A DNA stretch of 59,896 nucleotides from an uncultured archaeon. GTDB lineage: Archaea > Iainarchaeota > Iainarchaeia > Iainarchaeales > CAZJHM01. The stretch covers positions 1 to 59,896 of the forward strand of contig CAZJHM010000001.1 in assembly GCA_964545925.1 (NCBI GenBank). The letters run 5' to 3'. Under the pieces are notes generated by a model that worked only from the letters and a program-made list of their open reading frames with translations, made no database searches and had not been told where the DNA came from. The position numbers and the translations under genes were made by a program. Positions 31,458 to 57,638 of this stretch are shown here, piece by piece. Position 1 is the first letter of the stretch. Every line of letters begins with the position of its first letter.

Positions 31458-31541
31458 ACTATAAAAAGGCAGAGAAAGGGTTTTAAATATTTTGATTATA
31501 TAGTTTAGTTATTGACTAAGGAGTTTAGACAGGGGAAAAAT

Positions 31542-33837: not shown

Positions 33838-33839
33838 GT

Positions 33840-37427: not shown

Positions 37428-37466
37428 ATAGTTCTGATTTAAAAAAACTATGGTTTTCTTTCTTAT

Positions 37467-39171: not shown

Positions 39172-40763
39172 TCTTTGATTAACATCTTTATTACTTCTCC
39201 ATAAGCTGGACGAGTAATTAAAATTCCAACTAAAACACCTAAGATAGTTGTTATTGCAAAACCAACTAATTTTCCTAAACCATATCCCATTAAAATCAAA
39301 GGAGACATTGTTGCAATAACTGTTGCAGCAGCTGCAACTATAATAAAAAAAGCTTTCTTTATACGGGAAGAAACTGTTAAACTTTCATCTTCTTTTCTTC
39401 TTTCAAGAACTTCATCAGCAATAACTATTTGATCATCAACTCCTGTTCCAACTGAAGCTAATAAACCAGCAACTGCCCCTAAGTCAAGTTTACTGATTAA
39501 GGAAACTAAAGCAGTTGTAATAAATACTTCACTTATTCCTGTTAAAATAATTGGAATTACAATTTCTTTTGTTCTATATCTTATATAAAGAACTAATGCA
39601 ACTGTTAATAAAGCAATTAAACCTATAATTCCTGCTACAAGCAAGAAATTCTGCCCTAATAAAGGAGAAATAACTTCTTTGCTTATGCTTTTGACTGGAG
39701 CAGATAAAGAGCCTGAATCTAAAATAATTTCCATATCTTGTCTTTCGCTTTTTGCTTTATCTAAACTATCTGCATATCCTCTAATTAAGAGTTTGCTCAT
39801 TAAAGTTGCTTGAGAAACATTTGCAACATCCATATTTGCAACATCTTCCTGCAAAGAAACTACACTTCTTAAACCTGAAGCATTTACTATCCATGGTTTT
39901 TCAGACTCAGTTTCTATAACTTTTACATCAAAACCATTGTTTTCTAAATATTCTCTTAAACTAGATAAATCAGGAGTTATAATTACTTTATCTTTTCCAG
40001 TTGCTAAAAGTTGTTGTTTTTGTGCGTCTGTTAATATTCCATCTGAAACTAAAACATAATCTGTGTTTATTTGTTCAAGAATTTCTTCTATACTTGAATC
40101 TTTTGGAACTATTCCTTCAACTCCATATTCTAAAAGAGAATTATCTTCTGAATAAATTTCTGTACTTAATAAAAGAACTGAGTCTAAAGGACGGTCAATA
40201 AAGAAATAAACATACTCACAATCATATTGCTTTCCACCTGAACTATTCAAAGAAGAAAGCTCACATCTATGGAAAGTTCCTTCTGTGAATTTCTTTGCCC
40301 CTGAAGAACTTAAAACAAAAGGTAAAGTCCAAGAATAAGAACCATCTGAATTTCTAGTTATTGAATAACCTTGAGATGCATCTTTTAAAACTTTGATTAT
40401 ATCATCTCCTGTTAAAATTGCTTGTCCATCCAAAACAGATTCAAAAACTCCTTGCTTTCTTAACAAGCTTTCAATTCTTGCTATTGTTTCAGGATTTGTT
40501 TCTGCCATTTGAGCTAGAACAAAATCATCTCCAAAGAAAGAAACTGTTGTGTCTTTTAATCCTGTCCAATCTAAACGACTTTCAATTGTTTTAACTAATC
40601 TAGCTTTTTCTTCAGGACTAGTAATTGATTTATCAAACTGAATTTGGAACATTGTTCCTCCTTCAAAATCAATTCCAAAATCTATACCTCTGAAAGAAAT
40701 TATTAAAAAAGAAAAGATAAGCATTACTGCAACTAAAAGTAATTTATAGTTTTTAAGATTCAT
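39168..40763 (-). CDS. secD: protein-export membrane protein SecD
   Basis: N-terminal TM, large extracytoplasmic domain, C-terminal 5-TM bundle. 4-nt overlaps with secF and the upstream gene. Confidence 0.85.
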   Translation of the reverse strand: MNLKNYKLLLVAVMLIFSFLIISFRGIDFGIDFEGGTMFQIQFDKSITSPEEKARLVKTIESRLDWTGLKDTTVSFFGDDFVLAQMAETNPETIARIESLLRKQGVFESVLDGQAILTGDDIIKVLKDASQGYSITRNSDGSYSWTLPFVLSSSGAKKFTEGTFHRCELSSLNSSGGKQYDCEYVYFFIDRPLDSVLLLSTEIYSEDNSLLEYGVEGIVPKDSSIEEILEQINTDYVLVSDGILTDAQKQQLLATGKDKVIITPDLSSLREYLENNGFDVKVIETESEKPWIVNASGLRSVVSLQEDVANMDVANVSQATLMSKLLIRGYADSLDKAKSERQDMEIILDSGSLSAPVKSISKEVISPLLGQNFLLVAGIIGLIALLTVALVLYIRYRTKEIVIPIILTGISEVFITTALVSLISKLDLGAVAGLLASVGTGVDDQIVIADEVLERRKEDESLTVSSRIKKAFFIIVAAAATVIATMSPLILMGYGLGKLVGFAITTILGVLVGILITRPAYGEVIKMLIKD

Positions 40764-41836
40764 AATGTTCCACCTTTAGAACTTAGATATTTAAGCAAAA
40801 TTGGAGCATTCATTAACCAAGTTGAGATTATGTCTCCAAACAATCCAAAAAGAAGAACTATTGCTAAATTAAAGATTACATTTACTTGCATGAAATATGA
40901 GACAATAACCATTGTTAAAAGAGCACAAACAGTTGTCAAAGTCATTGTAAGTCCTGTTTTCATACTAAGGACTGTTTCTTTTCTTAAAGCATGTTTAGAA
41001 CTTGTTAAACGACTTGTTAGCATTATATCTGTATCAACTGAATATCCAATTAACATTAAAAGAGCAGGAATACTTGAAAGAGACAAAGGAATTTGGAAAA
41101 GAGCCATAAAAGCTAAAGCACTCATAATATCAAAAAAAGCAGCAAGTATAATTGCTAGACTTAAAACTGGGTCTCTGAAAAAGAAGAAAATAACTAAAAC
41201 AATTAAAACTATAGAAACCAAACTAAGATTGATAGCTGTTTGCCAGAAAGTATCTCCTAAAGTTGGGGCTATATCTTCTTTTTGGAAAGCTAAAGTTTTA
41301 ACTACAAACTTCTTTTCTATATTTGAAACAATAAAATCAGAATAGGATTTCTGGGCATCATAATAACCTTGTTCTAAAATTGTAAATGCTTTAGAATAAT
41401 CATTTGAAGAAATAAAAGAATCATATTCTTGTTTTTGCTTGAAATAACTGCCTAAAAAAGAAACTGTTTTGCCCATTTCTTTTTTTGCTTCTTCTGGATT
41501 ATCTGAAATTAAAGACTTTGCTGTTGAAAGAGAAAGTTCTGCATCTTCCAAAAACTTTGCTCCGGAATATTCAATTGTTAAACCATTTGAATTAGGAGCA
41601 CTAACTGAATAAACTTTAAGTTCTTGTATATCTAAAGATTGCAAAAGATAAGCTTCTACTTCTTTTGCATCAACTGGTTTGTCTAATTTAAGTATAATCA
41701 TAGAACCTCCTTTGAGTTCTATTCCACGGGGAACTGTTGGAAATATGAAAATTAAATATACAAAAAGAAGGAAAAACAAGGCAGGGATAACCATAAGACG
41801 CATATAATTGCCTTTATAGATATCTATACCAATCAT
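40760..41836 (-). CDS. secF: protein-export membrane protein SecF
   Basis: IELKGGSMIILKL periplasmic head plus a 5-TM C-terminal bundle. Archaeal secF-secD order. Confidence 0.85.
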   Translation of the reverse strand: MIGIDIYKGNYMRLMVIPALFFLLFVYLIFIFPTVPRGIELKGGSMIILKLDKPVDAKEVEAYLLQSLDIQELKVYSVSAPNSNGLTIEYSGAKFLEDAELSLSTAKSLISDNPEEAKKEMGKTVSFLGSYFKQKQEYDSFISSNDYSKAFTILEQGYYDAQKSYSDFIVSNIEKKFVVKTLAFQKEDIAPTLGDTFWQTAINLSLVSIVLIVLVIFFFFRDPVLSLAIILAAFFDIMSALAFMALFQIPLSLSSIPALLMLIGYSVDTDIMLTSRLTSSKHALRKETVLSMKTGLTMTLTTVCALLTMVIVSYFMQVNVIFNLAIVLLFGLFGDIISTWLMNAPILLKYLSSKGGTL

Positions 41837-43627: not shown

Positions 43628-44347
43628 ATGGAAGCAATTGTTTTAGCAGGTGGAAGAGGAGTCAGATTAAGACATTTAACAGAGAATAATCCAAAGGCTT
43701 TAGTTGAGATAAAAGGAAAAAGTTTGTTGGAATACACTTTAGATAATCTAGTTATTGCTGGAGTTAAAAAAACAGTTATTGTTATTGGATATTTAGGGGA
43801 AAAAATAAAAGAAAAAATAGGAAAAGAATACAAAGGAATGGAAATTGTTTATGCTTTGCAAAAAGAACCTTTGGGTTCAGGACATGCAATGATAATGGCT
43901 GAACCATATATTACAAAAGATAGATTTTTTCTATGTAGTTGCGATATAATCTTTGCAACATGGATATATGAGAAATTAGCAAGAGAAGAAGAAGTTTTAG
44001 TCACAAGATATATTTATGGAGACCCCTCTAGATTTGGAGTGGTTGTTTCAGAAGATGGGTTCTTGAAAGAAATAAGAGAAAAACCAAAAGATTTACCTGA
44101 AGGTAAATATTCAATAAATGCATTTTTGCATATTTGCAGAAAAGATATATTTGACTATTTGAAAAAGATTGAGAAAATAGAAGGGAAAGAAATACATTAT
44201 GTTGATGCTTTGAAAGAAAGCAATAAAAAAAGAACAATAAAAACAATACCTTACAAAGGCCCAATTGTTGATGTATCTACTCCTGAAGAAGTAGAAGAAG
44301 CTAATAAAAGAACAGAAATGGAATTCCCTGAAGTGAAAGAAATATGA
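43628..44347 (+). CDS. sugar-1-phosphate nucleotidylyltransferase
   Basis: AIVLAGGRGVRLRHLTENNPKALVEI N-terminal NTP-transferase signature. Confidence 0.85.
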   Translation: MEAIVLAGGRGVRLRHLTENNPKALVEIKGKSLLEYTLDNLVIAGVKKTVIVIGYLGEKIKEKIGKEYKGMEIVYALQKEPLGSGHAMIMAEPYITKDRFFLCSCDIIFATWIYEKLAREEEVLVTRYIYGDPSRFGVVVSEDGFLKEIREKPKDLPEGKYSINAFLHICRKDIFDYLKKIEKIEGKEIHYVDALKESNKKRTIKTIPYKGPIVDVSTPEEVEEANKRTEMEFPEVKEI

Positions 44348-45264
44348 CTATTTTAGTAACAGGGGGAGCTGGGCATATAGGCTCTAATCTGATTAGAAAA
44401 ATTAAAGGAAAGATTATTTGTCTAGATTCTTTATATTCTGGGAAAAAAGAGAATTTACCAAAAAATAAGAATCTGAGATTTAAGAAATATGATATAAGAA
44501 AACCTTTTAGCACAAAAGAAAAGATTGAGGAAATATGGCATTTGGCTTGCCCAGCTTCCCCTCCTTTTTATATGAATGAATCATTATATACTCTTGAAAC
44601 AAGTGTCCAAGGAACAATTAATATGTTGGAATTAGCTAGGAAAAAAGATTCTAAGATTCTTTTTACCTCTACCTCGGAAGTTTATGGAAATCCTTTGGAA
44701 CATCCTCAGAAAGAAACTTATTATGGAAATGTAAACACTTTAGGTCCAAGAAGTTGCTATGATGAAGGAAAAAGAGTTGCTGAAACTTTCTGTTATGAAT
44801 ACCAGAAAAAATATGGAGTAGACATAAAGATTGCTAGATTATTCAATACTTATGGAAGTTACATGCGCCCAGACGATGGAAGAGTTGTTTCATCTTTTAT
44901 CTACAATTCTTTGAAAGGAAAGGAATTAGAGATATATGGAGATGGAAAGCAAACTCGTTCTTTTACTTATGTTGATGATACTTTAGAAGGATTAATGAAA
45001 TTTATGGATTTAGGAAAGAAATATATGGGCCCAATAAATATTGGTTCTGTGGAAGAGCATAGTGTTTCAGAATTAGCTGAGATAATTGCTGAAGAAACAG
45101 GAAACAAGAAAAAGATTGTCTACAAAGGATTGCCTAAAGACGACCCTTACAAAAGAAAACCAGACATAAGCAGAGCCAAAGAAATTCTAAAATGGAAACC
45201 TAAGACAAGTTTAAGAAATGGGATTAAAAAGACTGTTTCTTTTTTCAGAGAGAACTATATTTAG
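44344..45264 (+). CDS. UDP-glucuronate decarboxylase (UDP-xylose synthase)-like SDR
   Basis: ILVTGGAGHIGSNL Rossmann motif plus the YDEGKRVAET catalytic motif typical of UXS. Confidence 0.8.
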   Translation: MTILVTGGAGHIGSNLIRKIKGKIICLDSLYSGKKENLPKNKNLRFKKYDIRKPFSTKEKIEEIWHLACPASPPFYMNESLYTLETSVQGTINMLELARKKDSKILFTSTSEVYGNPLEHPQKETYYGNVNTLGPRSCYDEGKRVAETFCYEYQKKYGVDIKIARLFNTYGSYMRPDDGRVVSSFIYNSLKGKELEIYGDGKQTRSFTYVDDTLEGLMKFMDLGKKYMGPINIGSVEEHSVSELAEIIAEETGNKKKIVYKGLPKDDPYKRKPDISRAKEILKWKPKTSLRNGIKKTVSFFRENYI

Positions 45265-45774
45265 ATATTTTTCAGAGACAAAGTCTGATAATCCATTACG
45301 AGAAAAAAGTTTTTTTATTCTTAAATTTTTGATTTCTTTAAATCCATTTTTCAAGGCAACTCTTTGACTTCCTTTGTTTTCAGGATGAGTACAGATAACA
45401 AGAAGTTTAGGAACAGAAGAATCTCTCTTAGCTTTTTTCTCCAATCTTTCTAAAATTTGTTTAAGAGCAGATGTAGTTATTCCTTTGCCCCAATATTTTT
45501 TACTTATACCATAACCTATTTCTATATAGGAAATTTCTTTTTTGAAATTAGGCATAACTCCTATAAAACCAACTAATTTATTGTGGAAAAAGATTGCAAA
45601 GTCTTTGCGGGACTTGTCTGCTAAAAAATCTTTAATTATTTTCTTTTCTTCAGCTAAAGAAGAAGGTGGTTTATGACTCCAGTATCTGAGAAAGTCTTTG
45701 TCTTTAAGGATTTTGTAAAAAGCAGAAGCATAAGAAACCTGAAAAGGTTTTAGTAAGACATCAGTATTTTTCAT
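45211..45774 (-). CDS. GNAT-family N-acetyltransferase (RimJ/RimL-like)
   Basis: IGYGISKKYWGKGITTSALKQIL and HPENKGSQRVALKNGF motifs. Start chosen at MKNTDV; the track ORF extends to 45837. Confidence 0.8.
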   Translation of the reverse strand: MKNTDVLLKPFQVSYASAFYKILKDKDFLRYWSHKPPSSLAEEKKIIKDFLADKSRKDFAIFFHNKLVGFIGVMPNFKKEISYIEIGYGISKKYWGKGITTSALKQILERLEKKAKRDSSVPKLLVICTHPENKGSQRVALKNGFKEIKNLRIKKLFSRNGLSDFVSEKYLNIVLSEKRNSLFNPIS

Positions 45775-46648
45775 GTTTTGTGTCCTCATATGAAAATGCT
45801 TTTCCTTGCCCTGCCAAGATAGAACGAAGAGTAACATAATTGATTGTTCTTTCTATGTCTTCTTTTCTAGTTGACATTGACTTTACTTGTTGAGAGAGAA
45901 CCTCTAAGAATGTGCGGGATTTGGAAAGAAGATGCACAAAAAATCTTTTGTCTAACCCTGCTTTTTGAACTATTTCTTGGAAGTTTATTCCTCCTCTGTA
46001 TTTTTTACCAAGTCTTTTCAAATCAGTTGAACTTAAATTAAATTTTCCTTCGGAAAATTTTTTAAGAATAGGCAAATCCATTAATGGAAAAACCAATTGA
46101 GAAGTAGCTATCTGATGTTTCAAGTCAGGGGAATGGAAGCTTGTATTTACAACTTCAAAATAATCAGATAATCCTCTTTCTCTCAAATAATCTTCAATTG
46201 CTTGTTTTCTAAATTCACTAATTCCAGATAAACCATATACTCCTAAAACACAAATTTTGAATCTGTTAGAAGGATTAAATTTCTTACCAAAACTACTCCG
46301 GAAAATCATGCTATTTATTTCTTTTAAAATGTCTCTTTCTTGTCTTAGTAAATTACCCCATTTAGAAAAATTTTTGTCAAAAAAAGATTTTGAACAGTGT
46401 TTTGGGAAGTTCTCCAATTGTTCAGGACTAACTTCTTGTTTTAATTGAAATGTTTTTAAAGCCCCATTTTCAAAATGAGTTAAAAGAATATTCAAAGTTG
46501 GATTAGGAATTACTCTAGAAGGAAGAGGTTGTTTTTCAGGTTTTAATTTAGAAAAAAACTCTCTTGGTAATCTTTTTGTTTGTTCTTTATTTTCTCCCTG
46601 AATTCCATTTATTTTTCTTTGAAAAGGATTTAATTTGCGAGGAGGCAT
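45761..46648 (-). CDS. hypothetical protein, co-directional and immediately downstream of ispH
   Basis: Long ORF with normal amino-acid composition and no motif I recognise. ATG at 46648; the track's TTG at 46681 overlaps the ispH stop. Confidence 0.6.
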   Translation of the reverse strand: MPPRKLNPFQRKINGIQGENKEQTKRLPREFFSKLKPEKQPLPSRVIPNPTLNILLTHFENGALKTFQLKQEVSPEQLENFPKHCSKSFFDKNFSKWGNLLRQERDILKEINSMIFRSSFGKKFNPSNRFKICVLGVYGLSGISEFRKQAIEDYLRERGLSDYFEVVNTSFHSPDLKHQIATSQLVFPLMDLPILKKFSEGKFNLSSTDLKRLGKKYRGGINFQEIVQKAGLDKRFFVHLLSKSRTFLEVLSQQVKSMSTRKEDIERTINYVTLRSILAGQGKAFSYEDTKHEKY

Positions 46649-46677
46649 ATAAAACAAAGACAAAAAGAAAATAAAAA

Positions 46678-47583
46678 TCAATCGATTTTGAAGTCTGCAG
46701 CTATTTCTTGCATACCTATAACTCTCATCTTGTCTACTTGTTCTGCTTGCCCACCAAGTTTAATTACAACTTCTTTGATTGAAAAGTCAGGTGTTGAGGC
46801 TCCAGCAGTTATTCCTATGCGAGAGTGAGAAAGTGCTTTTGAAGAATCTAATTCTGTAGCATCTTCTATATGAAGAGTTTCTACATGTTCAGAACAAGCT
46901 TTTGCTAACTTCTGAGTATTTGAACTATGCTTTCCTCCTATGACTATCATTAAGTCAACCTTCTTTGCAAGCTCTATTGCCGAAGCCCTGTGCATAATGC
47001 TTGCTATGCAAATTGTGTTATAAACTTCCATTAGTTTGGCATCTTGAGCTATTGCTCCAACTATATCTCCAAAAACTTTTTGCAAGTGAGTTGTTTGAGA
47101 AACAACCCCGACTTTTTTTTCTTTTAAATCAGGAAGTTCATCTAAAGAATTAACTGCTATTCCTTTTTGAGTATGACTTAAAATCCCAGTTACTTCAGGA
47201 TGAGAAGATTTTCCAACAACAACAACTTTGTATCCTTTTCTCTCTAACATATCTGCTTTTTTCTGGACATCCAAGACAAATGGACAAGTTGCATCTATGT
47301 ATTTTGCTCCCATTTCTTTCAATTGAGAATATGTTTCTTTTGGCTCTCCATGTGCTCTAATAATAACAATTGAATCATGTGGATTTTTTATTTCATCTAA
47401 AGATTGAATTTCTTCAATTCCTTTTTCTCTTAACCACTCAGACATTGCATTATTGTGAACTAATTGCCCCAAAACAAGAATTTTCTTGGATGGGTTTTCT
47501 TCTTTTGCTTTTAAAGCTAGTTTAACAGAATTAATAACTCCAAAACAAAAACCTGAATTATCTGCAACTATTATTTCAGTCAT
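46678..47583 (-). CDS. ispH: 4-hydroxy-3-methylbut-2-enyl diphosphate reductase (IspH/LytB)
   Basis: ADNSGFCFGV, DATCPFV, YNTIC (three cluster cysteines), VIGGKHSSNTQKL. Confidence 0.92.
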   Translation of the reverse strand: MTEIIVADNSGFCFGVINSVKLALKAKEENPSKKILVLGQLVHNNAMSEWLREKGIEEIQSLDEIKNPHDSIVIIRAHGEPKETYSQLKEMGAKYIDATCPFVLDVQKKADMLERKGYKVVVVGKSSHPEVTGILSHTQKGIAVNSLDELPDLKEKKVGVVSQTTHLQKVFGDIVGAIAQDAKLMEVYNTICIASIMHRASAIELAKKVDLMIVIGGKHSSNTQKLAKACSEHVETLHIEDATELDSSKALSHSRIGITAGASTPDFSIKEVVIKLGGQAEQVDKMRVIGMQEIAADFKID

Positions 47584-47602
47584 TTTTAAACAACCTCGTA
47601 CA

Positions 47603-47626
47603 ATTGTCTAAATATATATAGACAAT
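47603..47626. promoter_or_regulatory. 24-bp palindrome in the ispH / dxr divergent promoter region
   Basis: ATTGTCTA-AATATATA-TAGACAAT, perfect 8-bp arms around an AT-only core, in the 80-bp gap between divergent MEP genes. Confidence 0.5.
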
Positions 47627-47663
47627 CGAAATACTTTTAAACCTCCTTTTTCATTAAACATAT

Positions 47664-48803
47664 ATGAAAGAACTAATTGTAATGGGTTCAACTGGGTCAA
47701 TTGGAACTCAGACACTGGATGTCGTAAGACAGCACAAGGAAAAATACAAAATAATTGGATTGTCTGCAAACAGTAGTATAGACAAACTAATGGAACAAGC
47801 AAAAGAATTCAATGTTGAGAATATTGCTATTGTTAATAAAGAAAAAGCTGATGAGTTTGAGGAAAAAACAAAACTAAATGTAATGAAAGGAGAAAAAGGA
47901 TTATTAGAAATAGCTGAAATAAAAAGTGATATTTTTGTTAATAGTGTTGTTGGAGCTGCAGGTTTGAAACCTACATTAAAAGCTTTGGAAAACACAGGAA
48001 GAATGGCTATAGCTAATAAAGAGACTTTGGTTGTTGCTGGAGATTTAGTAATGCCTAAAGCAAAAGAACTAGGAGTTGAGTTATTGCCTATTGATTCTGA
48101 ACATTCTGCTCTTTTTCAGTGTTTGCAAGGAAACAACCAAAAAGACATAAAGAGATTAATAATAACTTGTTCAGGCGGAAGTTTCAGAGACACACCTCCT
48201 GAAAAACTAAAAGAAATGACTGCTAAAGAAGCTTTGAATCATCCAACTTGGAGCATGGGAGCAAAGATAACAATTGATTCAGCTACTTTGTTTAACAAAG
48301 GATTAGAAGTTATTGAAGCACATTTCTTGTTTGATATGCCTTATGACAAGATAGAAACTGTTATGCATCCTCAAAGTATAATTCATAGTATGATTGAATA
48401 CAGAGATGGAAGTATAATGGGACAATTAGGACAACATGATATGAGGATACCTATTGTTTATTCTTTGAGCTGGCCTGAAAGGATTGACTTGAATGTTGAA
48501 AAATTAGATTTTGTTAAATTAGGACAACTGACTTTTAGACAAATAGACCATCAGACTTTTCCTGCATTAAATTTAGCTTATGAAGTTGGAAGAAAAGCAG
48601 GAACAGCAAGAGCAGTAATGAATGCTGCAAATGAAGAAGCTGTATATGCTTTCTTAGATGGAAAGATAAAATTCTTGGAAATATACAAAAATGTAAAAGA
48701 TGCAGTTGATAATCACAAGTTTATGCAAAAGCCAAATATTGATGAACTTTTAGAAGCAGATAAATGGGCAAGAGAATATGTTAGAGGGAAAATAAATGGA
48801 TAA
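47664..48803 (+). CDS. dxr: 1-deoxy-D-xylulose 5-phosphate reductoisomerase
   Basis: GSTGSIGTQTLDV, IDSEHSALFQC, NKGLEVIEAHFLF. Confidence 0.95.
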   Translation: MKELIVMGSTGSIGTQTLDVVRQHKEKYKIIGLSANSSIDKLMEQAKEFNVENIAIVNKEKADEFEEKTKLNVMKGEKGLLEIAEIKSDIFVNSVVGAAGLKPTLKALENTGRMAIANKETLVVAGDLVMPKAKELGVELLPIDSEHSALFQCLQGNNQKDIKRLIITCSGGSFRDTPPEKLKEMTAKEALNHPTWSMGAKITIDSATLFNKGLEVIEAHFLFDMPYDKIETVMHPQSIIHSMIEYRDGSIMGQLGQHDMRIPIVYSLSWPERIDLNVEKLDFVKLGQLTFRQIDHQTFPALNLAYEVGRKAGTARAVMNAANEEAVYAFLDGKIKFLEIYKNVKDAVDNHKFMQKPNIDELLEADKWAREYVRGKING

Positions 48804-49482
48804 TATTGGTGTTATTCTTGCTGCTGGTTTAGGAGCAAGAATGAACTTAGGTTACAATAAAGCTCTTTTGGAAATTTATGGTAAGCCAGTTATCTACTAT
48901 ACTCTGGAATCTTTTGAAAAAAGCCAAATAGATGGAATTATTCTAGTTGTAAAAGAAGATGAAAAAGAAACAATGAAAGAAATAGTTGACAAATATGGAT
49001 TTAAAAAAGTCAAGAAGATTGTAGAAGGAGGAAAAAGAAGGCAAGACAGTTCTTTGAATGGAATAAAAGCTGCAAAAGAAATAAGGGGGAAAAATGTTTA
49101 TGTTCAAGATGGAGCAAGATGTTTGATAACTCCTGAGCAGATAAATGAAATGATAAAAATAATGGAAAAAGAAGAATGTTGCACAGCAGGAACAAAAGAA
49201 AAAAACACAATGAAAGAAGTAGATTCTGAGAAAAGAATTGTCAGGACTGTGCCAAGAGATAATTTAATGGAAATGCAAACTCCACAAGCTTCTCGAACTG
49301 ATTTACTATTAGAAGCATTTGAAAAATTGGGAGACAAAGATATAACAGATGAAAATATGGCTTTGGAAAATTTAGGCAAAAATCCTTTAGTTTATGATTC
49401 TGGTTCTGCAAATATCAAGATAACTGTTCAAGATGATATTCCAATTGCTGAGGCAATATTAAAGAGGCAGGGAAGATGTTAA
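48796..49482 (+). CDS. ispD: 2-C-methyl-D-erythritol 4-phosphate cytidylyltransferase
   Basis: GVILAAGLGARM N-terminus, GGKRRQDS, MQTPQ motif. Confidence 0.9.
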   Translation: MDNIGVILAAGLGARMNLGYNKALLEIYGKPVIYYTLESFEKSQIDGIILVVKEDEKETMKEIVDKYGFKKVKKIVEGGKRRQDSSLNGIKAAKEIRGKNVYVQDGARCLITPEQINEMIKIMEKEECCTAGTKEKNTMKEVDSEKRIVRTVPRDNLMEMQTPQASRTDLLLEAFEKLGDKDITDENMALENLGKNPLVYDSGSANIKITVQDDIPIAEAILKRQGRC

Positions 49483-49967
49483 TAGGATTAGGTGTAGATA
49501 GCCACAGATTTGAGGAACAAAAAACAAAACCTTTTGTTCTAGGAGGAGTGGAGTTTGACGAACCTTTGTCTATGAAAGCTAATAGTGATGGAGATTTAAT
49601 ATTACATGCTTTATGTAATGCAATTGGCTCCGCAATTGGAGAAGGAAGTCTTTCTAATTATGCTGATAAAATGTGCTTGGAACAAGGAATAAAAGACTCA
49701 AAAGAATATCTTAAATTTATTTTAAAAGAGGCAGAAAAAAAAGGATGGAAAGTAAAGCAGGTTGTTGTTTCTTTGGAGTGCAAGAAACCTAAGATTGAAG
49801 TCAAAAGAGAAAAAATTCAGGAATCTTTGGCTAAACTTTTAAATGTAAAAAAAGAAAAGATAGGGATTACTGCAACTTCAGGAGAAGGATTAACTGATGT
49901 GGGAAGAGGAGATGGAATCTATTGCATAGTAAATATTTTGATGGGGAGATTAAATGAAAACTCTTAA
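49476..49967 (+). CDS. ispF: 2-C-methyl-D-erythritol 2,4-cyclodiphosphate synthase (divergent)
   Basis: IGLGVDSHRF, SDGDLILHAL and GITATSGEGL..GRGDGI match IspF. The Zn-ligand His of AHSDGD is Asn here (ANSDGD), and the FPDTD loop is not recognisable. Confidence 0.8.
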   Translation: MLIGLGVDSHRFEEQKTKPFVLGGVEFDEPLSMKANSDGDLILHALCNAIGSAIGEGSLSNYADKMCLEQGIKDSKEYLKFILKEAEKKGWKVKQVVVSLECKKPKIEVKREKIQESLAKLLNVKKEKIGITATSGEGLTDVGRGDGIYCIVNILMGRLNENS

Positions 49968-50787
49968 TGCTTATGCTAAATTAAATTTATTATTAGACTT
50001 TTATGGGAAAAGAACAAATGGATATCATGAAGTTAATTTTGTAAATACTCCTATTTCTTTGGCAACTGAATTAAATGTAAAATATAATGATTCAGGAGAG
50101 ATTAGATTAAAGTCTGAAAACAATATTCCTTTAGATGAAAATAACTTTATACATAAGATAATCTCAAGAATAAAAGAAAACTACTCTTTAGATTTTGGAA
50201 TAGAAGTTGAAATTAAAAAAGGAAAAGAATTTGCTGGATTAGGAATTGGAAGTTCAGAAACTGCAAAAATACTAAATGAACTAAATGAAAAGTTTCAGTT
50301 GAAATTAATGGAATCAGAAAGAGCTGAATTAATTAAAGATATAACTTCAGATGGTTGTTTTTCAATCTATGAAAAACCAGCTGTTGTTAGAGGATTTGGA
50401 GAAAGAGTTTTTCCGCTCCGAAAAATAGAAATGCATGGAGTAGTTTTTGGAGTTCCTGCTGAAGTTCCTGAAAAGAAAACAAAATGGATGTATGGAAAAA
50501 TAACAAAAGAAATGTTTACTCCTGTTGATTGTTTGCCTATAGTAAAAGCTATAATGGAAAATAATTGGCAAGGAATAAAATCAAACTTGCATAATTTCTT
50601 TGAGAAACTGGATATTCCAGAATACAAAGAAAGTTTTGATTTAATAAAAGAACTAAGAAAAGACGGATATGGTTCAATATTGGCAGGTTCTGGCCCAACT
50701 GTTTTTGCTATTTGCAAAAACAAAGAACAAGCAGAAGAACTTTCCAATAAATATAAATATGATAGCAAAGTAATAGAGGCGGTGTAA
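49954..50787 (+). CDS. ispE: 4-diphosphocytidyl-2-C-methyl-D-erythritol kinase
   Basis: AYAKLNLLLDFYGKRTNGYHEV plus the GHMP loop GLGIGSSETA and GSGPTVFA. Confidence 0.88.
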   Translation: MKTLNAYAKLNLLLDFYGKRTNGYHEVNFVNTPISLATELNVKYNDSGEIRLKSENNIPLDENNFIHKIISRIKENYSLDFGIEVEIKKGKEFAGLGIGSSETAKILNELNEKFQLKLMESERAELIKDITSDGCFSIYEKPAVVRGFGERVFPLRKIEMHGVVFGVPAEVPEKKTKWMYGKITKEMFTPVDCLPIVKAIMENNWQGIKSNLHNFFEKLDIPEYKESFDLIKELRKDGYGSILAGSGPTVFAICKNKEQAEELSNKYKYDSKVIEAV

Positions 50788-51858
50788 ATGGAAATAAAAA
50801 GAAAAAAAACTAGACAAGTTTCAGTTGGAAAAGTTAAAGTTGGAGGTAATAGTCCAATAAGTGTGCAAAGTATGTGTGATACAAAAACACATGATGCAAA
50901 AGCAACTATTTCACAAATACATAGTCTGGAAGAAGTTGGATGTGAGATAATAAGAGTTGCTGTTCCTGATATGGAAGCTGCAAAAGCATTGAAAGAAATA
51001 AAAGAAAACATAAACATACCTTTGGTTGCAGATATACATTTTGATTATCGCTTAGCTTTGGAAAGTGCTAAGTATGTTGATAAAATAAGAATAAATCCTG
51101 GAAATATTGGAGATAAAGAAAAAACAAAAATGGTTGTAAATGATTGTAAAGAAAGAGGATTGCCTATAAGAATAGGAGTTAATTCTGGTTCTGTTGAACA
51201 AGACTTGTTGGAGAAATATGGACATCCAACTCCTGAGGCAATGGTTGAATCAGCTATGAAGCATGTTAAGATTCTGGAGGATTTAGATTTCCAAGACACA
51301 ATGATATCTGTAAAAGCAAGCAATGTTCCTGGAACAATTGATGCATATACAATTCTTTCAGAAAGAGTTGATTATCCTTTGCATGTGGGAGTAACAGAAG
51401 CAGGAACTGAATTTCAAGGAGCAATTAAATCCTCAGTTGGAATTGGATATTTGTTAGCAAATGGAATAGGAGATACAATAAGGGTTTCTTTAACTGGAGA
51501 TGTTGCGAAAGAAGTAGAAGCAGGATATGGGATTCTTAAATCTTTGAATCTAAGGACAAGAGGAGTGAATATAACCTCATGCCCAACCTGCGGAAGAACT
51601 CAGATAAACTTGGTTGCTTTAGCAAAAAAAGTTGAAGAACTAACCAAAGGAATAAAAGAGCCTGTTCATATTGCAGTAATGGGTTGTATAGTTAATGGAA
51701 TAGGAGAAGGAAAAGAAGCGGATATAGGAATAGCTGGAGGAAAAAATCAAGGAGTAATTTTCAAGAAAGGAGAGATAATAAGAAAGTGTGAAGAAAGTGA
51801 GTTATTAGATGCATTTATGGAAGAACTGGATAGGTTATTAGAAGAAAGAAAAAAGTAA
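50788..51858 (+). CDS. ispG: 4-hydroxy-3-methylbut-2-enyl diphosphate synthase (IspG/GcpE)
   Basis: RKKTRQVSVGKVKVGGNSPISVQSM, SCPTCGRT, MGCIVNGIGEG. Confidence 0.95.
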   Translation: MEIKRKKTRQVSVGKVKVGGNSPISVQSMCDTKTHDAKATISQIHSLEEVGCEIIRVAVPDMEAAKALKEIKENINIPLVADIHFDYRLALESAKYVDKIRINPGNIGDKEKTKMVVNDCKERGLPIRIGVNSGSVEQDLLEKYGHPTPEAMVESAMKHVKILEDLDFQDTMISVKASNVPGTIDAYTILSERVDYPLHVGVTEAGTEFQGAIKSSVGIGYLLANGIGDTIRVSLTGDVAKEVEAGYGILKSLNLRTRGVNITSCPTCGRTQINLVALAKKVEELTKGIKEPVHIAVMGCIVNGIGEGKEADIGIAGGKNQGVIFKKGEIIRKCEESELLDAFMEELDRLLEERKK

Positions 51859-51874
51859 AATAGAAGGTGGTAGT

Positions 51875-53692
51875 GTGATTCTGGATAAAATAGAAAGCCC
51901 TAAGGATGTCAAGAAATTGACTATTCCTGAAATGGAGCAATTAGCTCAAGAAATAAGAGAGGAAATGATTGCAAGTGTAACTAAAACTGGTGGGCATCTG
52001 GCTCCTAATCTGGGAGCAATTGAATCAATAATTGCTATGCATTTTGTTTATGATGTTCCTAAAGACAAAGTTATATTTGATGTTGGACATCAAGCTTATG
52101 CTCATAAAATGCTGACTGGAAGAAGAAAGCAAATGGGAAGTTTAAGACAGTTTAAAGGAATAGCTGGATTTTTGGAAAGAGAAGAAAGCCAGTATGATGT
52201 TTTTGGAGCTGGACATACATCTACTTCTATTAGTGCAGCAACTGGATTTGCAATTGCCAAGAAACTAAAAAAAGAAACAAATGAAGTTATTGCATATATA
52301 GGAGATGGAGCATTGACAGGAGGAATGGCTTATGAGGCTTTGAATTTTGCTGGACATCATAGATTGAATTTAACAGTTATATTAAACGACAATAAAATTA
52401 GTATATCCCCAAATGTTGGAGCAATGAGCAAACATCTAAAAAGATTAAGTGATATATCTGCAAATGGAAGAGTAGATGTTGAAACTATATTTGAAAAAAT
52501 GGGTTTTACTTATTTAGGCCCTATAGATGGACATAATATATCTGAATTAATTGCAATGCTGGAAGAAAGCAAAAAAATAAAGACACCTGTGATTATACAT
52601 ACCTTGACAAAAAAAGGAAAAGGATTGAAAGAAGCAGAGGAAGACCCAACCAAATATCATGGAGTATCTTGTATGGTTGGAGAAAAATCAGCTGGAAAAA
52701 AATCAATCAGTTATTCAAATGTGTTTGGAGAAACTTTATCAAAGTTTGCAGAAGAAGATGATAGTATAATAGGCATAACTGCTGCAATGGCAAATGGAAC
52801 AGGAATGATAAAATTTGCTGAAAAATTTCATGAAAGATTTTTTGATGTTGGAATTGCTGAACAACAAGCAGTAACTATGGCTGCTGGTTTAGCTGCTTCT
52901 GGATACAAAGCATGTCCAGCAATATATTCAACTTTTTTGCAAAGAGCATTTGACCAAATACAGCAAGATGTTGATTTGCAGAATTTACCTGTTAAATTTT
53001 TCATAGACAGAGCTGGATTGGTTGGAGAAGATGGAGCAACACATCATGGAACTTTGGATATTGCTTATTTGAGTATGCTTCCAAATATGACAGTAATGGC
53101 TCCAAAAGATTCATTTGAACTAAAAAGAATGATAAAAACATCTTTGAATTATGATAAAGGTCCAACTGCTGTTAGATATCCAAAAGGAGCATGTGAAAAA
53201 GAAGGAAAAGAAGAAGGAAAAATTGAGAATTTAGAAATAGGGAAAGCAGAAGTTTATTCAGAAGGTAGTGATTTAAATATTGTTTCTCTCGGAGCAATAA
53301 CTCCTATTGCTGATTCAGCTTTGGACAAGATAAATGGAAGTGTCGGATTAGTAAATGCAAGATTTGCAAAACCATTTGATGAAAACATGATTGAAAGATT
53401 AGCTAAAAAAGCTCCTCTTTTGATTATAGAAGAAGGAACAATTATCTCTGGTTTTTCAGCAAACATAGCTTTGCACTTGCAACAGAAAGGAATAGATGCC
53501 CAATTGAAAGTTTTAGCAATTCCTGATAGATATATAAGACATGCAACAAGAGAAGAACAACTGGATATGCTTGGATTTAATTCAGAGAATATTGCCAAAA
53601 TTTCAAATGAGATAATAAAAGGAAACTCTCCTTTGTTTGCACCAGAAGATTATAAAGAACTTGTTAGACAATATAATAACAAAGATAAGTGA
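51875..53692 (+). CDS. dxs: 1-deoxy-D-xylulose 5-phosphate synthase
   Basis: GGHLAPNLGAIE, DVGHQAYAHKMLTGR, GDGALTGGMAYEALN. GTG start preceded by AAGGTGG. Confidence 0.95.
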   Translation: MILDKIESPKDVKKLTIPEMEQLAQEIREEMIASVTKTGGHLAPNLGAIESIIAMHFVYDVPKDKVIFDVGHQAYAHKMLTGRRKQMGSLRQFKGIAGFLEREESQYDVFGAGHTSTSISAATGFAIAKKLKKETNEVIAYIGDGALTGGMAYEALNFAGHHRLNLTVILNDNKISISPNVGAMSKHLKRLSDISANGRVDVETIFEKMGFTYLGPIDGHNISELIAMLEESKKIKTPVIIHTLTKKGKGLKEAEEDPTKYHGVSCMVGEKSAGKKSISYSNVFGETLSKFAEEDDSIIGITAAMANGTGMIKFAEKFHERFFDVGIAEQQAVTMAAGLAASGYKACPAIYSTFLQRAFDQIQQDVDLQNLPVKFFIDRAGLVGEDGATHHGTLDIAYLSMLPNMTVMAPKDSFELKRMIKTSLNYDKGPTAVRYPKGACEKEGKEEGKIENLEIGKAEVYSEGSDLNIVSLGAITPIADSALDKINGSVGLVNARFAKPFDENMIERLAKKAPLLIIEEGTIISGFSANIALHLQQKGIDAQLKVLAIPDRYIRHATREEQLDMLGFNSENIAKISNEIIKGNSPLFAPEDYKELVRQYNNKDK

Positions 53693-53696
53693 TAAT

Positions 53697-55682
53697 ATGA
53701 TTGAAAAACTTTTTTATCCTAAAAGTATAGCTGTTGTGGGAACTTCAGAAAACCCTGCAAAAGTTGGTTATTCTGTTTTAAAAAACATAAAAGAAAGTTT
53801 CAAGGGGGAAGTTTATCCTGTAAATCCAAAAGCAGAAGAAATTCTTGGATTAAAAACTTACAAGTCTGTTTCTGATATTCCAGAAAGTTTTGATTTAGTT
53901 GTAATTATTGTCCCTGCTGCTTTTGTTTCTGAGGTTTTAAAAGAATCTGGTAAGAAAGGAGTAAAAGCAGGAATAGTAATAAGTGCTGGATTCAGGGAAA
54001 TTGGAAAACAAGGAGAAGAGTTGGAAAAACAAATAACTGAAATTGCAGAGAAATATAAGATAAGTTTGCTTGGTCCTAATTGTTTAGGACTTCTAAATTC
54101 AGACAATAAACTAAATGCAGCATTTGTGATTGATGGAATAAAAAAAGGAAAAACAGCATTTGTTTCTCAGAGTGGAGCTTTGTGCACAGCAATAATAGAC
54201 TGGGCACAAGAACAAGATTTTGGATTTAGTAAATTTGTAAGCATAGGGAATAAAGCAGTTTTAGATGAATCTGATTTATTAGAATATCTAAACAAAGACA
54301 AAGAAACAGAAGTTATATTGATGTATTTAGAAACAATAAAAAATGGAAAAAAGTTTATGAAAGAAGCCATGGAATCAGACAAGCCAATTGTTCTCTTAAA
54401 GGCAGGAAAAACAGATTATGGAAAAAAAGCTGCAATGAGTCATACAGGTTCAATGATATCAGGCAATGAGATTTACAAGGCAGTTTACAAGAAAACAGGA
54501 ATAATAGAAGCAGAGACAATAGAGGAAATGTTTGAGATATGCAAGCTTTTAATTGAAGGTAAAAAAGCAAAACCAAGAACATTAGGAATAATAACAAATG
54601 CAGGAGGAGTTGGAGTTATATCTGCAGATAGTGCATTTGGTGAAGGAATCTTGCTTCCAGAAATTGATTCTAAAAAAATCAAGGAAAAACTTCCAAGAGC
54701 TTCAGGAAACAATCCTTTGGATGTTATTGGGGATGCAAAATCTGAAGATTATAAAAAAGCAATTGAACTCTTTTTGGAGTCTGAGAAAATTGGTTCTTTG
54801 TTAATTTTATTGACTCCTCAGTCAGTGACTGAGATAGAAGAAACAGCCAAAGAAATAATAAAGGCAAGCAAAAAAAACAACAAGCCAATTGTTGCATGTT
54901 TCTTAGGGGGCAAAAGAGTTAAAGAAGCAAGAAAAATATTGTCTGAAAATAAAATTCCAAATTTTGATTTTCCTGAAAAAGCTGTAAAGGCAATTGCAGG
55001 ATTAATGAATGAGAAGAAAAAGTATTTTATACATAAAGGAGAAAAATTAAATTTAGAAGAACCAAAGTCTTTGGAAGAATCATTTAGATTATTGCAAAAG
55101 ATTGGAATCCCAGTTGCTAACTTTTGTACAGGAGGGAAAAAAGAGATAACAATAAGAGCAAGAAATTTCAGATATCCTTCTGTTTTAAAGTTTGATGCAA
55201 ATATAGCCCATAAAACTGAATATGGAATAGTCAAGATTATAAATAATGAAAAAGAATTTAATGAAGGAATTGAAAAAATGGAAAAAATAGTTAGAAAAAA
55301 CAAGTTAGAGGGAAAATATATTTTGCAGGAAAAAATAGAAGGAAAGTCAATAATTATTGGAGCAGTTAAAAATGAGAGTTTTGGGACAGTGGTAAATCTA
55401 GGAGCAGGGGGAATATATACAGAAGTCTTGAAAGACAATTCTCTTGCTTTAACTCCTTTGCCAAGAAATGAGATTAAAGAAATGCTTGAATCTTTGAAAA
55501 CATACAAACTATTAGAAGGAGTTAGAGGAGAAAAAGCAGTGGATATAAATTCTATTATAGAGATAACTGAAAAAATTGCTGAAGTAGTTGAAAATAGCAG
55601 GATAAAAGAGATGGAAATAAATCCAATAATTGTGAATGAAAAAGGAGCTTGGGCAGTTGATGCTTTATTTAAGTTTGAATAG
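53697..55682 (+). CDS. ADP-forming acetyl-CoA synthetase (fused alpha/beta, NDP-forming acyl-CoA synthetase family)
   Basis: SIAVVGTSENPAKVG CoA-binding motif, LLGPNCLGLLN, SHTGSM phosphohistidine loop, C-terminal ATP-grasp. ATG at 53697, 4 nt after the dxs stop. Confidence 0.88.
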   Translation: MIEKLFYPKSIAVVGTSENPAKVGYSVLKNIKESFKGEVYPVNPKAEEILGLKTYKSVSDIPESFDLVVIIVPAAFVSEVLKESGKKGVKAGIVISAGFREIGKQGEELEKQITEIAEKYKISLLGPNCLGLLNSDNKLNAAFVIDGIKKGKTAFVSQSGALCTAIIDWAQEQDFGFSKFVSIGNKAVLDESDLLEYLNKDKETEVILMYLETIKNGKKFMKEAMESDKPIVLLKAGKTDYGKKAAMSHTGSMISGNEIYKAVYKKTGIIEAETIEEMFEICKLLIEGKKAKPRTLGIITNAGGVGVISADSAFGEGILLPEIDSKKIKEKLPRASGNNPLDVIGDAKSEDYKKAIELFLESEKIGSLLILLTPQSVTEIEETAKEIIKASKKNNKPIVACFLGGKRVKEARKILSENKIPNFDFPEKAVKAIAGLMNEKKKYFIHKGEKLNLEEPKSLEESFRLLQKIGIPVANFCTGGKKEITIRARNFRYPSVLKFDANIAHKTEYGIVKIINNEKEFNEGIEKMEKIVRKNKLEGKYILQEKIEGKSIIIGAVKNESFGTVVNLGAGGIYTEVLKDNSLALTPLPRNEIKEMLESLKTYKLLEGVRGEKAVDINSIIEITEKIAEVVENSRIKEMEINPIIVNEKGAWAVDALFKFE

Positions 55683-55736: not shown

Positions 55737-57011
55737 ATGAAAATCTCAGTTATCGGAGCAGGATATGTTGGATTAGTAACAGCAGCTGGTTTGTCTAAGA
55801 TTGGGCATACTGTTGTCTGCCAAGACATAGACAAAGAAAAGATTGCGGAATTGAAGAAAGGGCAGATGCCTATTTATGAAGAAGGATTAGAAGAGATAAT
55901 CAAAGATGAAATGAAAAAAGGAAGGATTGAATTTACTTTAGATTGTAAAGAAGCAATTGATAAAAGTGAGATAATATTTATTGCTGTTGGAACTCCTCCT
56001 TTGGATAGTGGAGAGACGGACTTAAGATACATAGAATCTGTTTCTAAAGAGATAGGGGGAAAAACAAAAGCAGATAAAACAATTGTGATTAAAAGTACTG
56101 TTCCTGTTGGAACTTCTAAAAAAGTCAAAGAATGGCTAGGGGAAAAGAATAAGTTTGAAGTTGTAAATAATCCTGAGTTTCTGAGAGAAGGAACAGCAAT
56201 AAAAGATTTTCTTGAACCAGACAGAATAGTTATTGGTGGTTCAGAGAAAGCTTGTTCTTTGCTAAAAGAAGTTTATGCTCCAATTGATTGTCCAGTCCTT
56301 TGCACAGATAATGAAAGTGCTGAGATAATCAAATATGCAAGCAATTCTTTTTTAGCAACCAAGATTTCCTTTATAAATTTGGTTTCTAGGTTATGCGAAA
56401 AGACAAGTGCAAATATAAAAGATGTAGCAAAAGGAGTTGGAATGGATAGCCGAATAGGCTCAAAATTTCTAATGGCTGGATTGGGATATGGAGGTTCCTG
56501 CTTTCCAAAAGATGTGGATTCTTTTATTTATACTGCTCGTGAAAAAGGTTTGGATTTTGGATTATTTGAGGAAACCCATAAAATAAACAAAGAACAAAGA
56601 ATTATGTTTTTTGAGAAAATTAAAAAAGAACTTGGAGATTTAAATGGAAAGAAAATTGCAGTTTTGGGATTAGCTTTCAAACCAAATACAGATGATATGC
56701 GAGAAGCTCCAAGTATAGATATTCTTAAGATGCTGAGAAAAGAAAAAGCTGAGATACATGCTTATGACCCAATTGCTGAAGAAAATGCCAAGAAAAGTAT
56801 TGATGGATTAAAGACATATCCAAATATATATGAAACTATGGATAATGCAGATGTTCTTGTAATACTTACTGATTGGGCTGAATTCAGAGAAATGGATTTC
56901 TCTAAGATTAAAAAATTATTGAAAAACCCTCTGATTATAGATGGAAGAAATATGTTTGAGAAAATTGAAGGATTTAGATATGTTTCAATAGGTAGAAAAA
57001 CCAAAGAATAG
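55737..57011 (+). CDS. ugd: UDP-glucose 6-dehydrogenase
   Basis: MKISVIGAGYVGLVTAAG, NPEFLREG, GGSCFPKD catalytic Cys motif. Confidence 0.94.
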   Translation: MKISVIGAGYVGLVTAAGLSKIGHTVVCQDIDKEKIAELKKGQMPIYEEGLEEIIKDEMKKGRIEFTLDCKEAIDKSEIIFIAVGTPPLDSGETDLRYIESVSKEIGGKTKADKTIVIKSTVPVGTSKKVKEWLGEKNKFEVVNNPEFLREGTAIKDFLEPDRIVIGGSEKACSLLKEVYAPIDCPVLCTDNESAEIIKYASNSFLATKISFINLVSRLCEKTSANIKDVAKGVGMDSRIGSKFLMAGLGYGGSCFPKDVDSFIYTAREKGLDFGLFEETHKINKEQRIMFFEKIKKELGDLNGKKIAVLGLAFKPNTDDMREAPSIDILKMLRKEKAEIHAYDPIAEENAKKSIDGLKTYPNIYETMDNADVLVILTDWAEFREMDFSKIKKLLKNPLIIDGRNMFEKIEGFRYVSIGRKTKE

Positions 57012-57041: not shown

Positions 57042-57638
57042 ATGGGATTATTGAAATGGTTATTTTCAATTGGAATAAAAGAAAAAAGAATTGAAAACTT
57101 ACGAAAGACAAGAAATGTTCTTTTAGAAACAGTTAAAGAAATGGAAAAAGAGGCAAAGACTGATATTGAAAAAAGATATTATAAAGAAATGGTTAAGAGC
57201 ATAGAAAATACTCCTGTATTTTTTGTGCCTGGAAAGGTTCTTTCTGCTAGAAAAACTAATCAAGGAACAAGTGCAATAATGGGAGGAAATGTGGTTAAAG
57301 TTTTCTTTGAAAAACAAAAAGGATTAGTAAGACAAAATTATATTGTTCTTCCATCTAAACATCTTTTTGAAGGAAGTAAGTTGAGCAAACAAGGATTACT
57401 TACTTTATTGCATGAATATGGGCATCTTCAAGGTAATGCTGGAGAAAGAATTGCAGATGCTTTAATGTTAAACATAGGGCTCAGACTTGGGCTCCCAAAA
57501 GAAAGTGTACTAAGGCATTTTAGTGGCAGACATGAAATATTAGGGCAAGCATATCCATTATACATAAAAAAGATTTTAGAATCAAGAAAACCCAAAAAAC
57601 AAACACCTTTTGTTCCTAAACAAAGAAAAATAGTTTAA
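57042..57638 (+). CDS. hypothetical protein with HExxH motif (putative zinc metallopeptidase)
   Basis: LLHEYGHLQG is the only recognisable motif; 198 aa. Confidence 0.45.
   Translation: MGLLKWLFSIGIKEKRIENLRKTRNVLLETVKEMEKEAKTDIEKRYYKEMVKSIENTPVFFVPGKVLSARKTNQGTSAIMGGNVVKVFFEKQKGLVRQNYIVLPSKHLFEGSKLSKQGLLTLLHEYGHLQGNAGERIADALMLNIGLRLGLPKESVLRHFSGRHEILGQAYPLYIKKILESRKPKKQTPFVPKQRKIV

Follow-up and report, generated by a model that had tools for sequence, protein, structure and literature searches.

How does a complete pathway of bacterial type come to lie, as a single compact block, among the genes of an archaeal chromosome, and is it still in use there? The question is raised by positions 46678-53692 of a 59.9-kb contig (CAZJHM010000001.1; the whole stretch is referred to here as the window), where seven uninterrupted open reading frames (ORFs) make up the full set of the MEP/DOXP route (named after methylerythritol phosphate and 1-deoxy-D-xylulose 5-phosphate), all within 7.0 kb. 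Mevalonate is the canonical archaeal route to isopentenyl diphosphate (IPP) and MEP is typical of bacteria, a split that forms part of the "lipid divide" in arguments on early cell evolution. The best reading of the block, at a probability of roughly 85%, is that it is a MEP/DOXP operon which came originally from bacteria, has long resided in the chromosome of a DPANN archaeon of low guanine-plus-cytosine (GC) content (~30%), and is functional.

The leftmost gene of the block, ispH (LytB; 46678-47583, minus strand), is predicted to encode a 4-hydroxy-3-methylbut-2-enyl diphosphate (HMBPP) reductase of 301 amino acids (aa) and is divergent from dxr, the intergenic spacer, as read from the sequence, being 80 nt long (47584-47663). 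The six other genes lie on the plus strand: dxr (47664-48803; DXP reductoisomerase, 379 aa, three Dxr Pfam domains; a database gene call uses an alternative start at M7, position 47682, giving 373 aa), ispD (48796-49482; MEP cytidylyltransferase, 228 aa, Pfam IspD 1e-47), ispF (49476-49967; 2-C-methyl-D-erythritol 2,4-cyclodiphosphate (MEcPP) synthase, 163 aa, Pfam YgbB 5.6e-38), ispE (49954-50787; 4-diphosphocytidyl-2-C-methyl-D-erythritol (CDP-ME) kinase of the GHMP family, 277 aa, assigned from NCBIfam and solved structures), ispG (GcpE; 50788-51858; HMBPP synthase of the two-domain bacterial type, 356 aa, Pfam GcpE 1.6e-154) and dxs (51875-53692; DXP synthase, 605 aa, GTG start, assigned from TIGR00204 and Pfam domains). 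Consecutive genes overlap by 8 nt (dxr/ispD), 7 nt (ispD/ispF) and 14 nt (ispF/ispE), ispE and ispG abut, and a gap of 16 nt separates ispG from dxs; ispD and ispF are separate, unfused ORFs. These overlapping and abutting stop and start codons point to dxr-ispD-ispF-ispE-ispG-dxs as one co-directional transcription unit. A sequence-only reading of the window made earlier had described the same seven genes, with ispH divergent and the other six in one operon, and its coordinates and junctions match the present ones exactly.

That the ORFs are what their motifs suggest is borne out by profile searches, which the sequence-only reading had named as a refuting check: each ORF falls in its expected MEP family in Pfam and NCBIfam, with Pfam E-values that run, in six cases, from 1e-38 to 1e-154, and NCBIfam equivalog cut-offs are exceeded by six of the seven proteins (Dxs, Dxr, IspD, IspF, IspG and IspH). 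The signature motifs quoted in that reading are likewise all found in the translations. Dxs scores 685.8 against TIGR00204 (cut-off 465.95) and contains DXP_synthase_N and both transketolase domains, together with GGHLAPNLG, GDGALTGG, NDN and GEDGATHHG, so that the GDG..NDN motifs for thiamine diphosphate are in place. Dxr, in which GSTGSIG, DSEHSA and HPTWSMG can be read, scores 486 against TIGR00243 (cut-off 315.7) and 498.6 against NF009114 (cut-off 461); IspD scores 188.8 against TIGR00453 (cut-off 181.3), and IspF, with the Zn-ligand motifs DSHRF and SDGDLILHA, 143.3 against TIGR00151 (cut-off 116.45). For IspG the scores are 436.5 against TIGR00612 (cut-off 280.25) and 501.6 against NF001540 (cut-off 345), and the closest match in the Protein Data Bank (PDB) is 3noy (6e-114), with CPTCGR and GC.VN.IGE (here GCIVNGIGE) aligned. 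IspH scores 254.3 against TIGR00216 (cut-off 187.85) and 6.6e-82 against Pfam LYTB, its best NCBIfam models being NF000907 and NF009024; the closest solved structure is that of Aquifex (3dnf, 2e-57), with which its three cluster cysteines (in GFCFGV, ATCPFV and NTIC) align. The [4Fe-4S] ligands of both IspG and IspH are thus in place.

Because MEP is typically bacterial, and because the nearest characterised homologs of these enzymes are bacterial, a fragment of bacterial DNA might be suspected of having been joined to archaeal DNA in assembly or binning, an explanation to which almost no weight can now be given. The block lies inside one contig of 59.9 kb and has archaeal genes to its left and right. 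By Pfam the window contains L7Ae, aIF2-gamma, an Rpb3-like RpoD, an Rpb7-like RpoE, Kae1, a RIO-type (Bud32-like) kinase, Orc1/Cdc6 and CDP-archaeol synthase (CarS), all of which had been named as archaeal flanks in the sequence-only reading, as well as L24e, S6e, S3Ae, S15/S13e, aIF5B and an archaeal ribosomal-protein operon (L3, L4 ... SecY). Further, both junctions recur in an independent and diverged NCBI assembly, GCA_054474095.1 (contig JBMXLV010000010.1, hereafter L073), an accession of which no mention was found in the literature. Gene order in L073 is the same as in the window through both block borders, reading S3Ae-DUF92-CarS-exosortase-SecDF-Cdc6-NTP transferase-epimerase-GNAT-hypothetical-ispH on the left and dxr-ispD-ispF-ispE-ispG-dxs-ACD-...-CorA-Sua5 on the right (ACD, ADP-forming acetyl-CoA synthetase; NTP, nucleoside triphosphate). 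Amino-acid identity between window and L073 is 70-81% for the MEP proteins (IspH 81%, Dxr 77%) and 34-78% for the flank proteins, and the mean MEP identity of ~75% is on par with that of L3 (76%), aIF5B (74%) and Cdc6 (78%). A more distant Logan contig, ERR15087765_1559364 (73 kb; loci L078 and L081), holds not only an MEP cluster of seven genes (L078) but also S2-TrmB-GluRS-L7Ae-L24e-NDK-aIF5B-S6e-aIF2-gamma-RpoE-Kae1 in the order of the window, tying an MEP cluster to archaeal translation genes. Given the border synteny of L073 and the linkage on the Logan contig, misassembly and contamination are excluded for practical purposes.

Composition leads to the same end, since GC, GC at third codon positions (GC3) and codon use of the block are indistinguishable from those of the flanks. 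GC is uniform along the window (0.27-0.34), relative synonymous codon usage of the seven MEP genes correlates at 0.965 with that of the other 68 window ORFs, GC3 of the MEP genes is 0.155-0.220 as against 0.171 +/- 0.028 in the rest of the window, and the per-gene synonymous-codon likelihoods of the MEP genes lie within one standard deviation of the host mean. The host-like composition judged by eye in the sequence-only reading is thereby put on a numerical footing, and it argues, as was proposed there, against contamination and for a functional acquisition that is old.

The host appears to be a DPANN archaeon whose closest named relatives are Diapherotrites/Iainarchaeota, as judged from best hits rather than from phylogenomic placement. 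After L073, the next best matches are at 53% for L3 and 60% for aIF5B, and among the best 120 matches of each protein all those named by lineage are Diapherotrites, Iainarchaeum or "ainarchaeum" (46-56%), the remainder being labelled "archaeon" only; L3 is 47-53% identical to proteins named Diapherotrites. No Woesearchaeota, Pacearchaeota, Nanoarchaeota or Micrarchaeota occur among these best 120 matches of L3 and aIF5B, and the L3 of a Micrarchaeia locus (L077) is 39% identical to that of the window. The possibility that the host is a Woesearchaeote of the published MEP-bearing clade was considered and rejected on the named best matches of L3 and aIF5B.

Where, then, did the genes come from? 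Exact-sequence look-ups did not retrieve the window's IspG or Dxr from the assembly collection. IspG was searched against GTDB species representatives, and the matches were mostly bacterial: identity to Bacillota is 58-61%, the best bacterial matches being Bacillota metagenome-assembled genomes (MAGs) at 60-61%, and further matches are found in Peptostreptococcus, Desulfovibrionaceae and Moraniibacteriota (57-58%). One MAG labelled "Candidatus Nanoarchaeia archaeon" matches at 62-63%; its ispG-ispH pair lies between a polyprenyl synthetase gene and one for an undecaprenyl-diphosphate-synthase-type cis-prenyltransferase, near archaeal Cbf5. In a neighbour-joining tree of IspG, 161 of 200 bootstraps unite the Nanoarchaeia sequence with those of the window and L073 in one clade, which is placed among Bacillota (Clostridia), the deeper nodes not being bootstrapped. 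For Dxr, L073 is the sole close relative (77%), all others being at or below 55% identity, among them sequences from Bacillaceae and cyanobacteria, one labelled "archaeon" and one from a Micrarchaeia archaeon (52%). That the MEP genes came down vertically from an ancestor early in the Archaea or in DPANN might be entertained, since they show full amelioration and occur in several DPANN lineages. However, their distribution among archaea is sparse, the IspG of the window is nearer to Bacillota (58-61%) than to that of the archaeal contig L078 (38%), and published phylogenies put DPANN enzymes inside bacterial clades (PMC6107057; PMC8421398), which makes vertical descent highly unlikely.

Compact MEP clusters are also found in L073, L076, L078, L079 and L080; L078 and L080 share the core layout of the window, with ispH divergent from dxr-ispD-ispF, and L076 and L079 are variants. 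The proteins of the archaeal-context clusters L076, L078, L079 and L080 are only 29-56% identical to those of the window, and the IspG of L078 (14437-15663, on a Diapherotrites-like contig) is of a 408-aa type with 38% identity; together these hint at gene replacement or at multiple, separate acquisitions among DPANN. If the IspG grouping with Nanoarchaeia and the different source of L078 hold true, this would suggest that MEP genes were exchanged and replaced among DPANN after the original bacterial acquisition. At 71 loci around bacterial ispG, inspected with up to 10 kb of flank on each side, never more than two of the seven MEP genes are present, typically with dxr ~2 kb upstream of ispG. 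This agrees with the remark in the sequence-only reading that bacteria usually scatter these genes, and it makes compaction appear a feature of the archaeal carriers. A contig labelled "Candidatus Methanomethylophilaceae archaeon" (L017, CAVAPR010000003.1) carries an IspG that the tree places next to those of Gastranaerophilales/Melainabacteria as nearly identical; this has the look of a mistake in binning or labelling of the public record, not of a further archaeal MEP case.

The suggestion, also made in the sequence-only reading, that the block is a transferable cassette finds no backing in its surroundings. No integrase or transposase genes adjoin it, no tRNA is near it (the single tRNA of the window is 30 kb away), a search for flanking direct repeats gave only low-complexity AT-rich chance matches, and there is no compositional break. 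A plasmid search with Dxr returned isolated dxr only, for example on megaplasmids of the Bacillus cereus group, and a phage search with IspG returned isolated ispG only; neither detected an MEP cassette, the neighbours of the hits not having been inspected in either search.

The signals of the block look archaeal. The spacer 47584-47663 is probably a bidirectional archaeal promoter shared by ispH and dxr. It contains a near-perfect 24-nt palindrome, ATTGTCTAAATA/TATATAGACAAT, at 47603-47626 (an inverted repeat with 12-nt arms, 92% complementarity and a central ATATATAT stretch), and a TATA-like TTTTAAAC box lies ~25-30 nt upstream of the dxr ATG. The right half-site of the palindrome, TAGACAATC, and the downstream TTTTAAACC are kept in L073 at an equal distance upstream of dxr, and the TTTTAAAC box is shared with L073 as well; the left half is not conserved there. 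It is possible that this region may serve as an operator or as a TATA element for the operon. A scan for sigma-70 promoters found sites no more frequent than in shuffled sequence, and one for intrinsic terminators found none; the absence of these bacterial signals fits an archaeal rather than a bacterial type, and says little more. Apart from one tRNA, an Rfam scan gave no match, whether to a riboswitch or to any other RNA family. The GGTG ribosome-binding style that had been described as common to block and host stands in part: sites of this type do precede ispG, dxs (GGTGG at -10) and a few host genes, but most genes have looser purine-rich GAGG/GGAG stretches upstream, and dxr, the first gene, has no Shine-Dalgarno-like sequence.

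A model may be constructed in which Dxs would condense pyruvate and glyceraldehyde-3-phosphate to DXP, Dxr, IspD, IspE and IspF would convert DXP to MEcPP, and the [4Fe-4S] enzymes IspG and IspH would reduce MEcPP to IPP and dimethylallyl diphosphate (DMAPP), their reducing partners presumably being encoded elsewhere in the genome. If the enzymes carry flux, as seems probable, IPP and DMAPP may feed archaeal isoprenoid lipids, polyprenyl carriers, or both, and MEP would substitute for the mevalonate route. No member of a mevalonate-pathway family occurs among the window ORFs checked, a set that takes in all those of at least 200 aa lying outside the ribosomal-protein operon. The lipid branch is suggested by CarS (37467-37961, plus strand; Pfam CarS-like 1.5e-41), an archaeal ether-lipid step that would use products derived from IPP and DMAPP and may be linked to the MEP block. 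CarS and the adjoining gene for a DUF92 membrane protein (36753-37427; Pfam DUF92 9.1e-38) are 9 kb from the block, and the pair also occurs in L073; the DUF92 family includes phytyl-phosphate-kinase-like membrane proteins. Within 36753-38413, a 152-aa ORF comes next after DUF92 and CarS; its L073 counterpart matches Exosortase_EpsH, and the three look like a small conserved lipid/membrane-anchoring gene group in both genomes.

Selection on the block is consistent with use. The ratio of nonsynonymous to synonymous substitution rates (dN/dS) between window and L073 is 0.11-0.24 for the MEP genes, from ispH (0.11) to ispE (0.24), and 0.09-0.38 for the flanking genes, so that the MEP block is under purifying selection in the same range as its flanks, the individual values being rough because dS is near saturation (0.9-1.5). 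That roughness is one of several points that weigh against a functional, bacterially derived operon. Of the seven genes, ispE has diverged the most; its product scores 129.6 against TIGR00154, slightly under the cut-off of 138.7, matches only general GHMP kinase domains in Pfam (GHMP_kinases_C 3.7e-11) and has a P-loop, GLGIGSS, with a Gly-to-Ile change. On the other side, IspE sequences fill the first eight places among its PDB matches, with 2v2q (3.5e-17) at the top, its Lys9 and Asp133 align with the catalytic residues of Aquifex IspE, and operon position and the dN/dS of 0.24 lend support to its predicted function. The neighbour-joining tree of Dxr lacks support: its "archaeal-context" group of 16 sequences, found in 12 of 100 bootstraps, was not relied on. 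It also counts against the operon reading that the window is the sole visible portion of the genome.

The last point of this kind concerns the fate of the IPP, which is uncertain because Woesearchaeota of subgroup J, which bear MEP, have been reported to be without geranylgeranylglyceryl phosphate (GGGP) and digeranylgeranylglyceryl phosphate (DGGGP) synthases (Huang et al., 2021; PMC8421398). It could accordingly be proposed that the operon is functional and that its main sink is polyprenyl or dolichyl phosphate glycan carriers, or small isoprenoids, bulk lipids being scavenged from a host. Polyprenyl carriers come into consideration as a sink through the nucleotide-sugar genes that flank the block, a sugar-1-phosphate nucleotidyltransferase and an epimerase/dehydratase at 43628-45264 and a UDP-glucose (uridine diphosphate glucose) dehydrogenase at 55737-57011, and the position of ispG-ispH in the Nanoarchaeia MAG, between polyprenyl synthetase and cis-prenyltransferase, is in keeping with the same idea. 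However, CarS, a dedicated archaeal phospholipid enzyme, is only 9 kb away and is conserved in L073, and the nucleotide-sugar neighbours may be coincidental, the UDP-glucose dehydrogenase being absent at that position in L073. As the main sink, carrier lipids or small isoprenoids are on present evidence rather unlikely; whichever sink applies, an operon that is in use remains the preferred reading.

Several neighbouring genes complete the picture. Downstream of dxs on the plus strand is a gene for ACD, an enzyme outside the pathway (53697-55682; CoA_binding, Succ_CoA_lig and ATP-grasp_5 domains; TIGR02717 4e-162), which follows dxs in L073 also. The ORF is listed from a TTG at 53637, inside dxs; this start is probably over-extended, and the ATG at 53697 is more plausible. 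Because that ATG sits 4 nt past the dxs stop, ACD is probably co-transcribed with the MEP operon. On the other side, directly downstream of ispH and overlapping it by 4 nt, is an uncharacterised minus-strand ORF (45761-46681), noted for its position, which has no match in Pfam or NCBIfam and has a 244-aa homolog at 36% identity in the same position in L073; a GNAT acetyltransferase gene (45211-45837) comes after it. Further out, a 198-aa ORF at 57042-57638 has an HEYGH (HExxH-type) motif, no family match and 51% identity to an ORF in the same position in L073, and may encode a small metalloprotease. A bacterial-type GrpE-DnaK-DnaJ chaperone set and SecD/SecF are found at 31512-34832 and 39168-41836; such a chaperone set in DPANN has already been noted by Castelle et al. 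(2021; PMC8204110).

How far the locus departs from what is known is a matter of degree. The novelty implied by the sequence-only reading, and flagged there as unconfirmed, does not hold, as MEP in DPANN with co-located genes and with Firmicutes-like or FCB-like donors is already published (PMC5383146; PMC6107057; PMC8204110; PMC8421398; PMC10936187; PMC12892359). Groundwater DPANN were reported to use either mevalonate or MEP/DOXP (Ludington et al., 2017; PMC5383146), and MEP enzymes in a few DPANN were attributed to transfer from FCB bacteria by Hoshino and Gaucher (2018; PMC6107057). Building on Castelle and Banfield (2018), which reported DPANN MEP as cited in PMC8204110, Castelle et al. 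(2021; PMC8204110) described MEP as widespread among 52 Woesearchaeota that make up one monophyletic clade, the genes being co-located. Huang et al. (2021; PMC8421398) found MEP confined to Woesearchaeota subgroups F and J, with ispDF fused in most of subgroup J; the closest relationship of Dxr and IspG was to Firmicutes. A 2024 study described MEP for MAGs of Woesearchaeota and Nanoarchaeota but, in Iainarchaeota, genes of the mevalonate route (PMC10936187), and a 2025 study described complete MEP in the Micrarchaeota orders Norongarragalinales, Zaosheniarchaeales and Micrarchaeales, the pathway having been "formerly only detected in Woesearchaeales" (PMC12892359); MEP is not mentioned in PMC8561730. 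With DPANN MEP in print since 2017-2018, the window is a further example, matching the known cases in all functional respects, and no new kind. What may be new is the Diapherotrites-like host and the unfused ispD and ispF. That the block represents a previously unreported MEP-bearing DPANN lineage is conceivable, with the odds somewhat against it. Only tentatively, and with less than even confidence, can a fuller account be offered, in which a host related to Diapherotrites/Iainarchaeota, outside Woesearchaeales and the three Micrarchaeota orders, would have replaced mevalonate by MEP, would feed ether lipids through CarS, and would share an IspG exchanged among DPANN.

The general interest of such loci is that archaea running a bacterial precursor pathway under archaeal lipid enzymes demonstrate that recombining the two halves is possible, as has already been argued for Woesearchaeota and Micrarchaeota. 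To this the window contributes a case that is well supported, fully contiguous and strongly conserved, in a seemingly different DPANN lineage, and its operon, a compact 7 kb, lends itself to cloning in one piece for tests of complementation or engineering.

Among known systems, the clusters of Woesearchaeota (Woesearchaeales, Nanoarchaeota) share with the window bacterial-type MEP, co-located genes, a DPANN host and a Firmicutes-like affinity of Dxr and IspG. They differ in that the named relatives of the window's host are Diapherotrites/Iainarchaeum, in that ispDF is mostly fused in subgroup J whereas ispD and ispF are separate here, and in that no UbiA prenyltransferase was found adjoining the window block among the ORFs checked to ~5 kb on each side. 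The Micrarchaeota resemble the window in possessing a complete, horizontally acquired bacterial pathway in DPANN outside Woesearchaeales; in the Micrarchaeia locus L077, however, dxr stands alone beside the ribosomal-protein operon, and there is no seven-gene block. Bacillota-type MEP comprises the same seven enzymes, with a two-domain IspG of ~356 aa and the same NCBIfam models (NF009114, NF000907, NF009024 and NF001540), whereas in the window all seven genes sit side by side in an archaeal host, with signals of archaeal appearance (a TATA-like box, and intrinsic terminators lacking). Finally, archaeal mevalonate pathways supply the same end products, IPP and DMAPP, for isoprenoid lipids, but do so with enzymes that are non-homologous to the MEP set.

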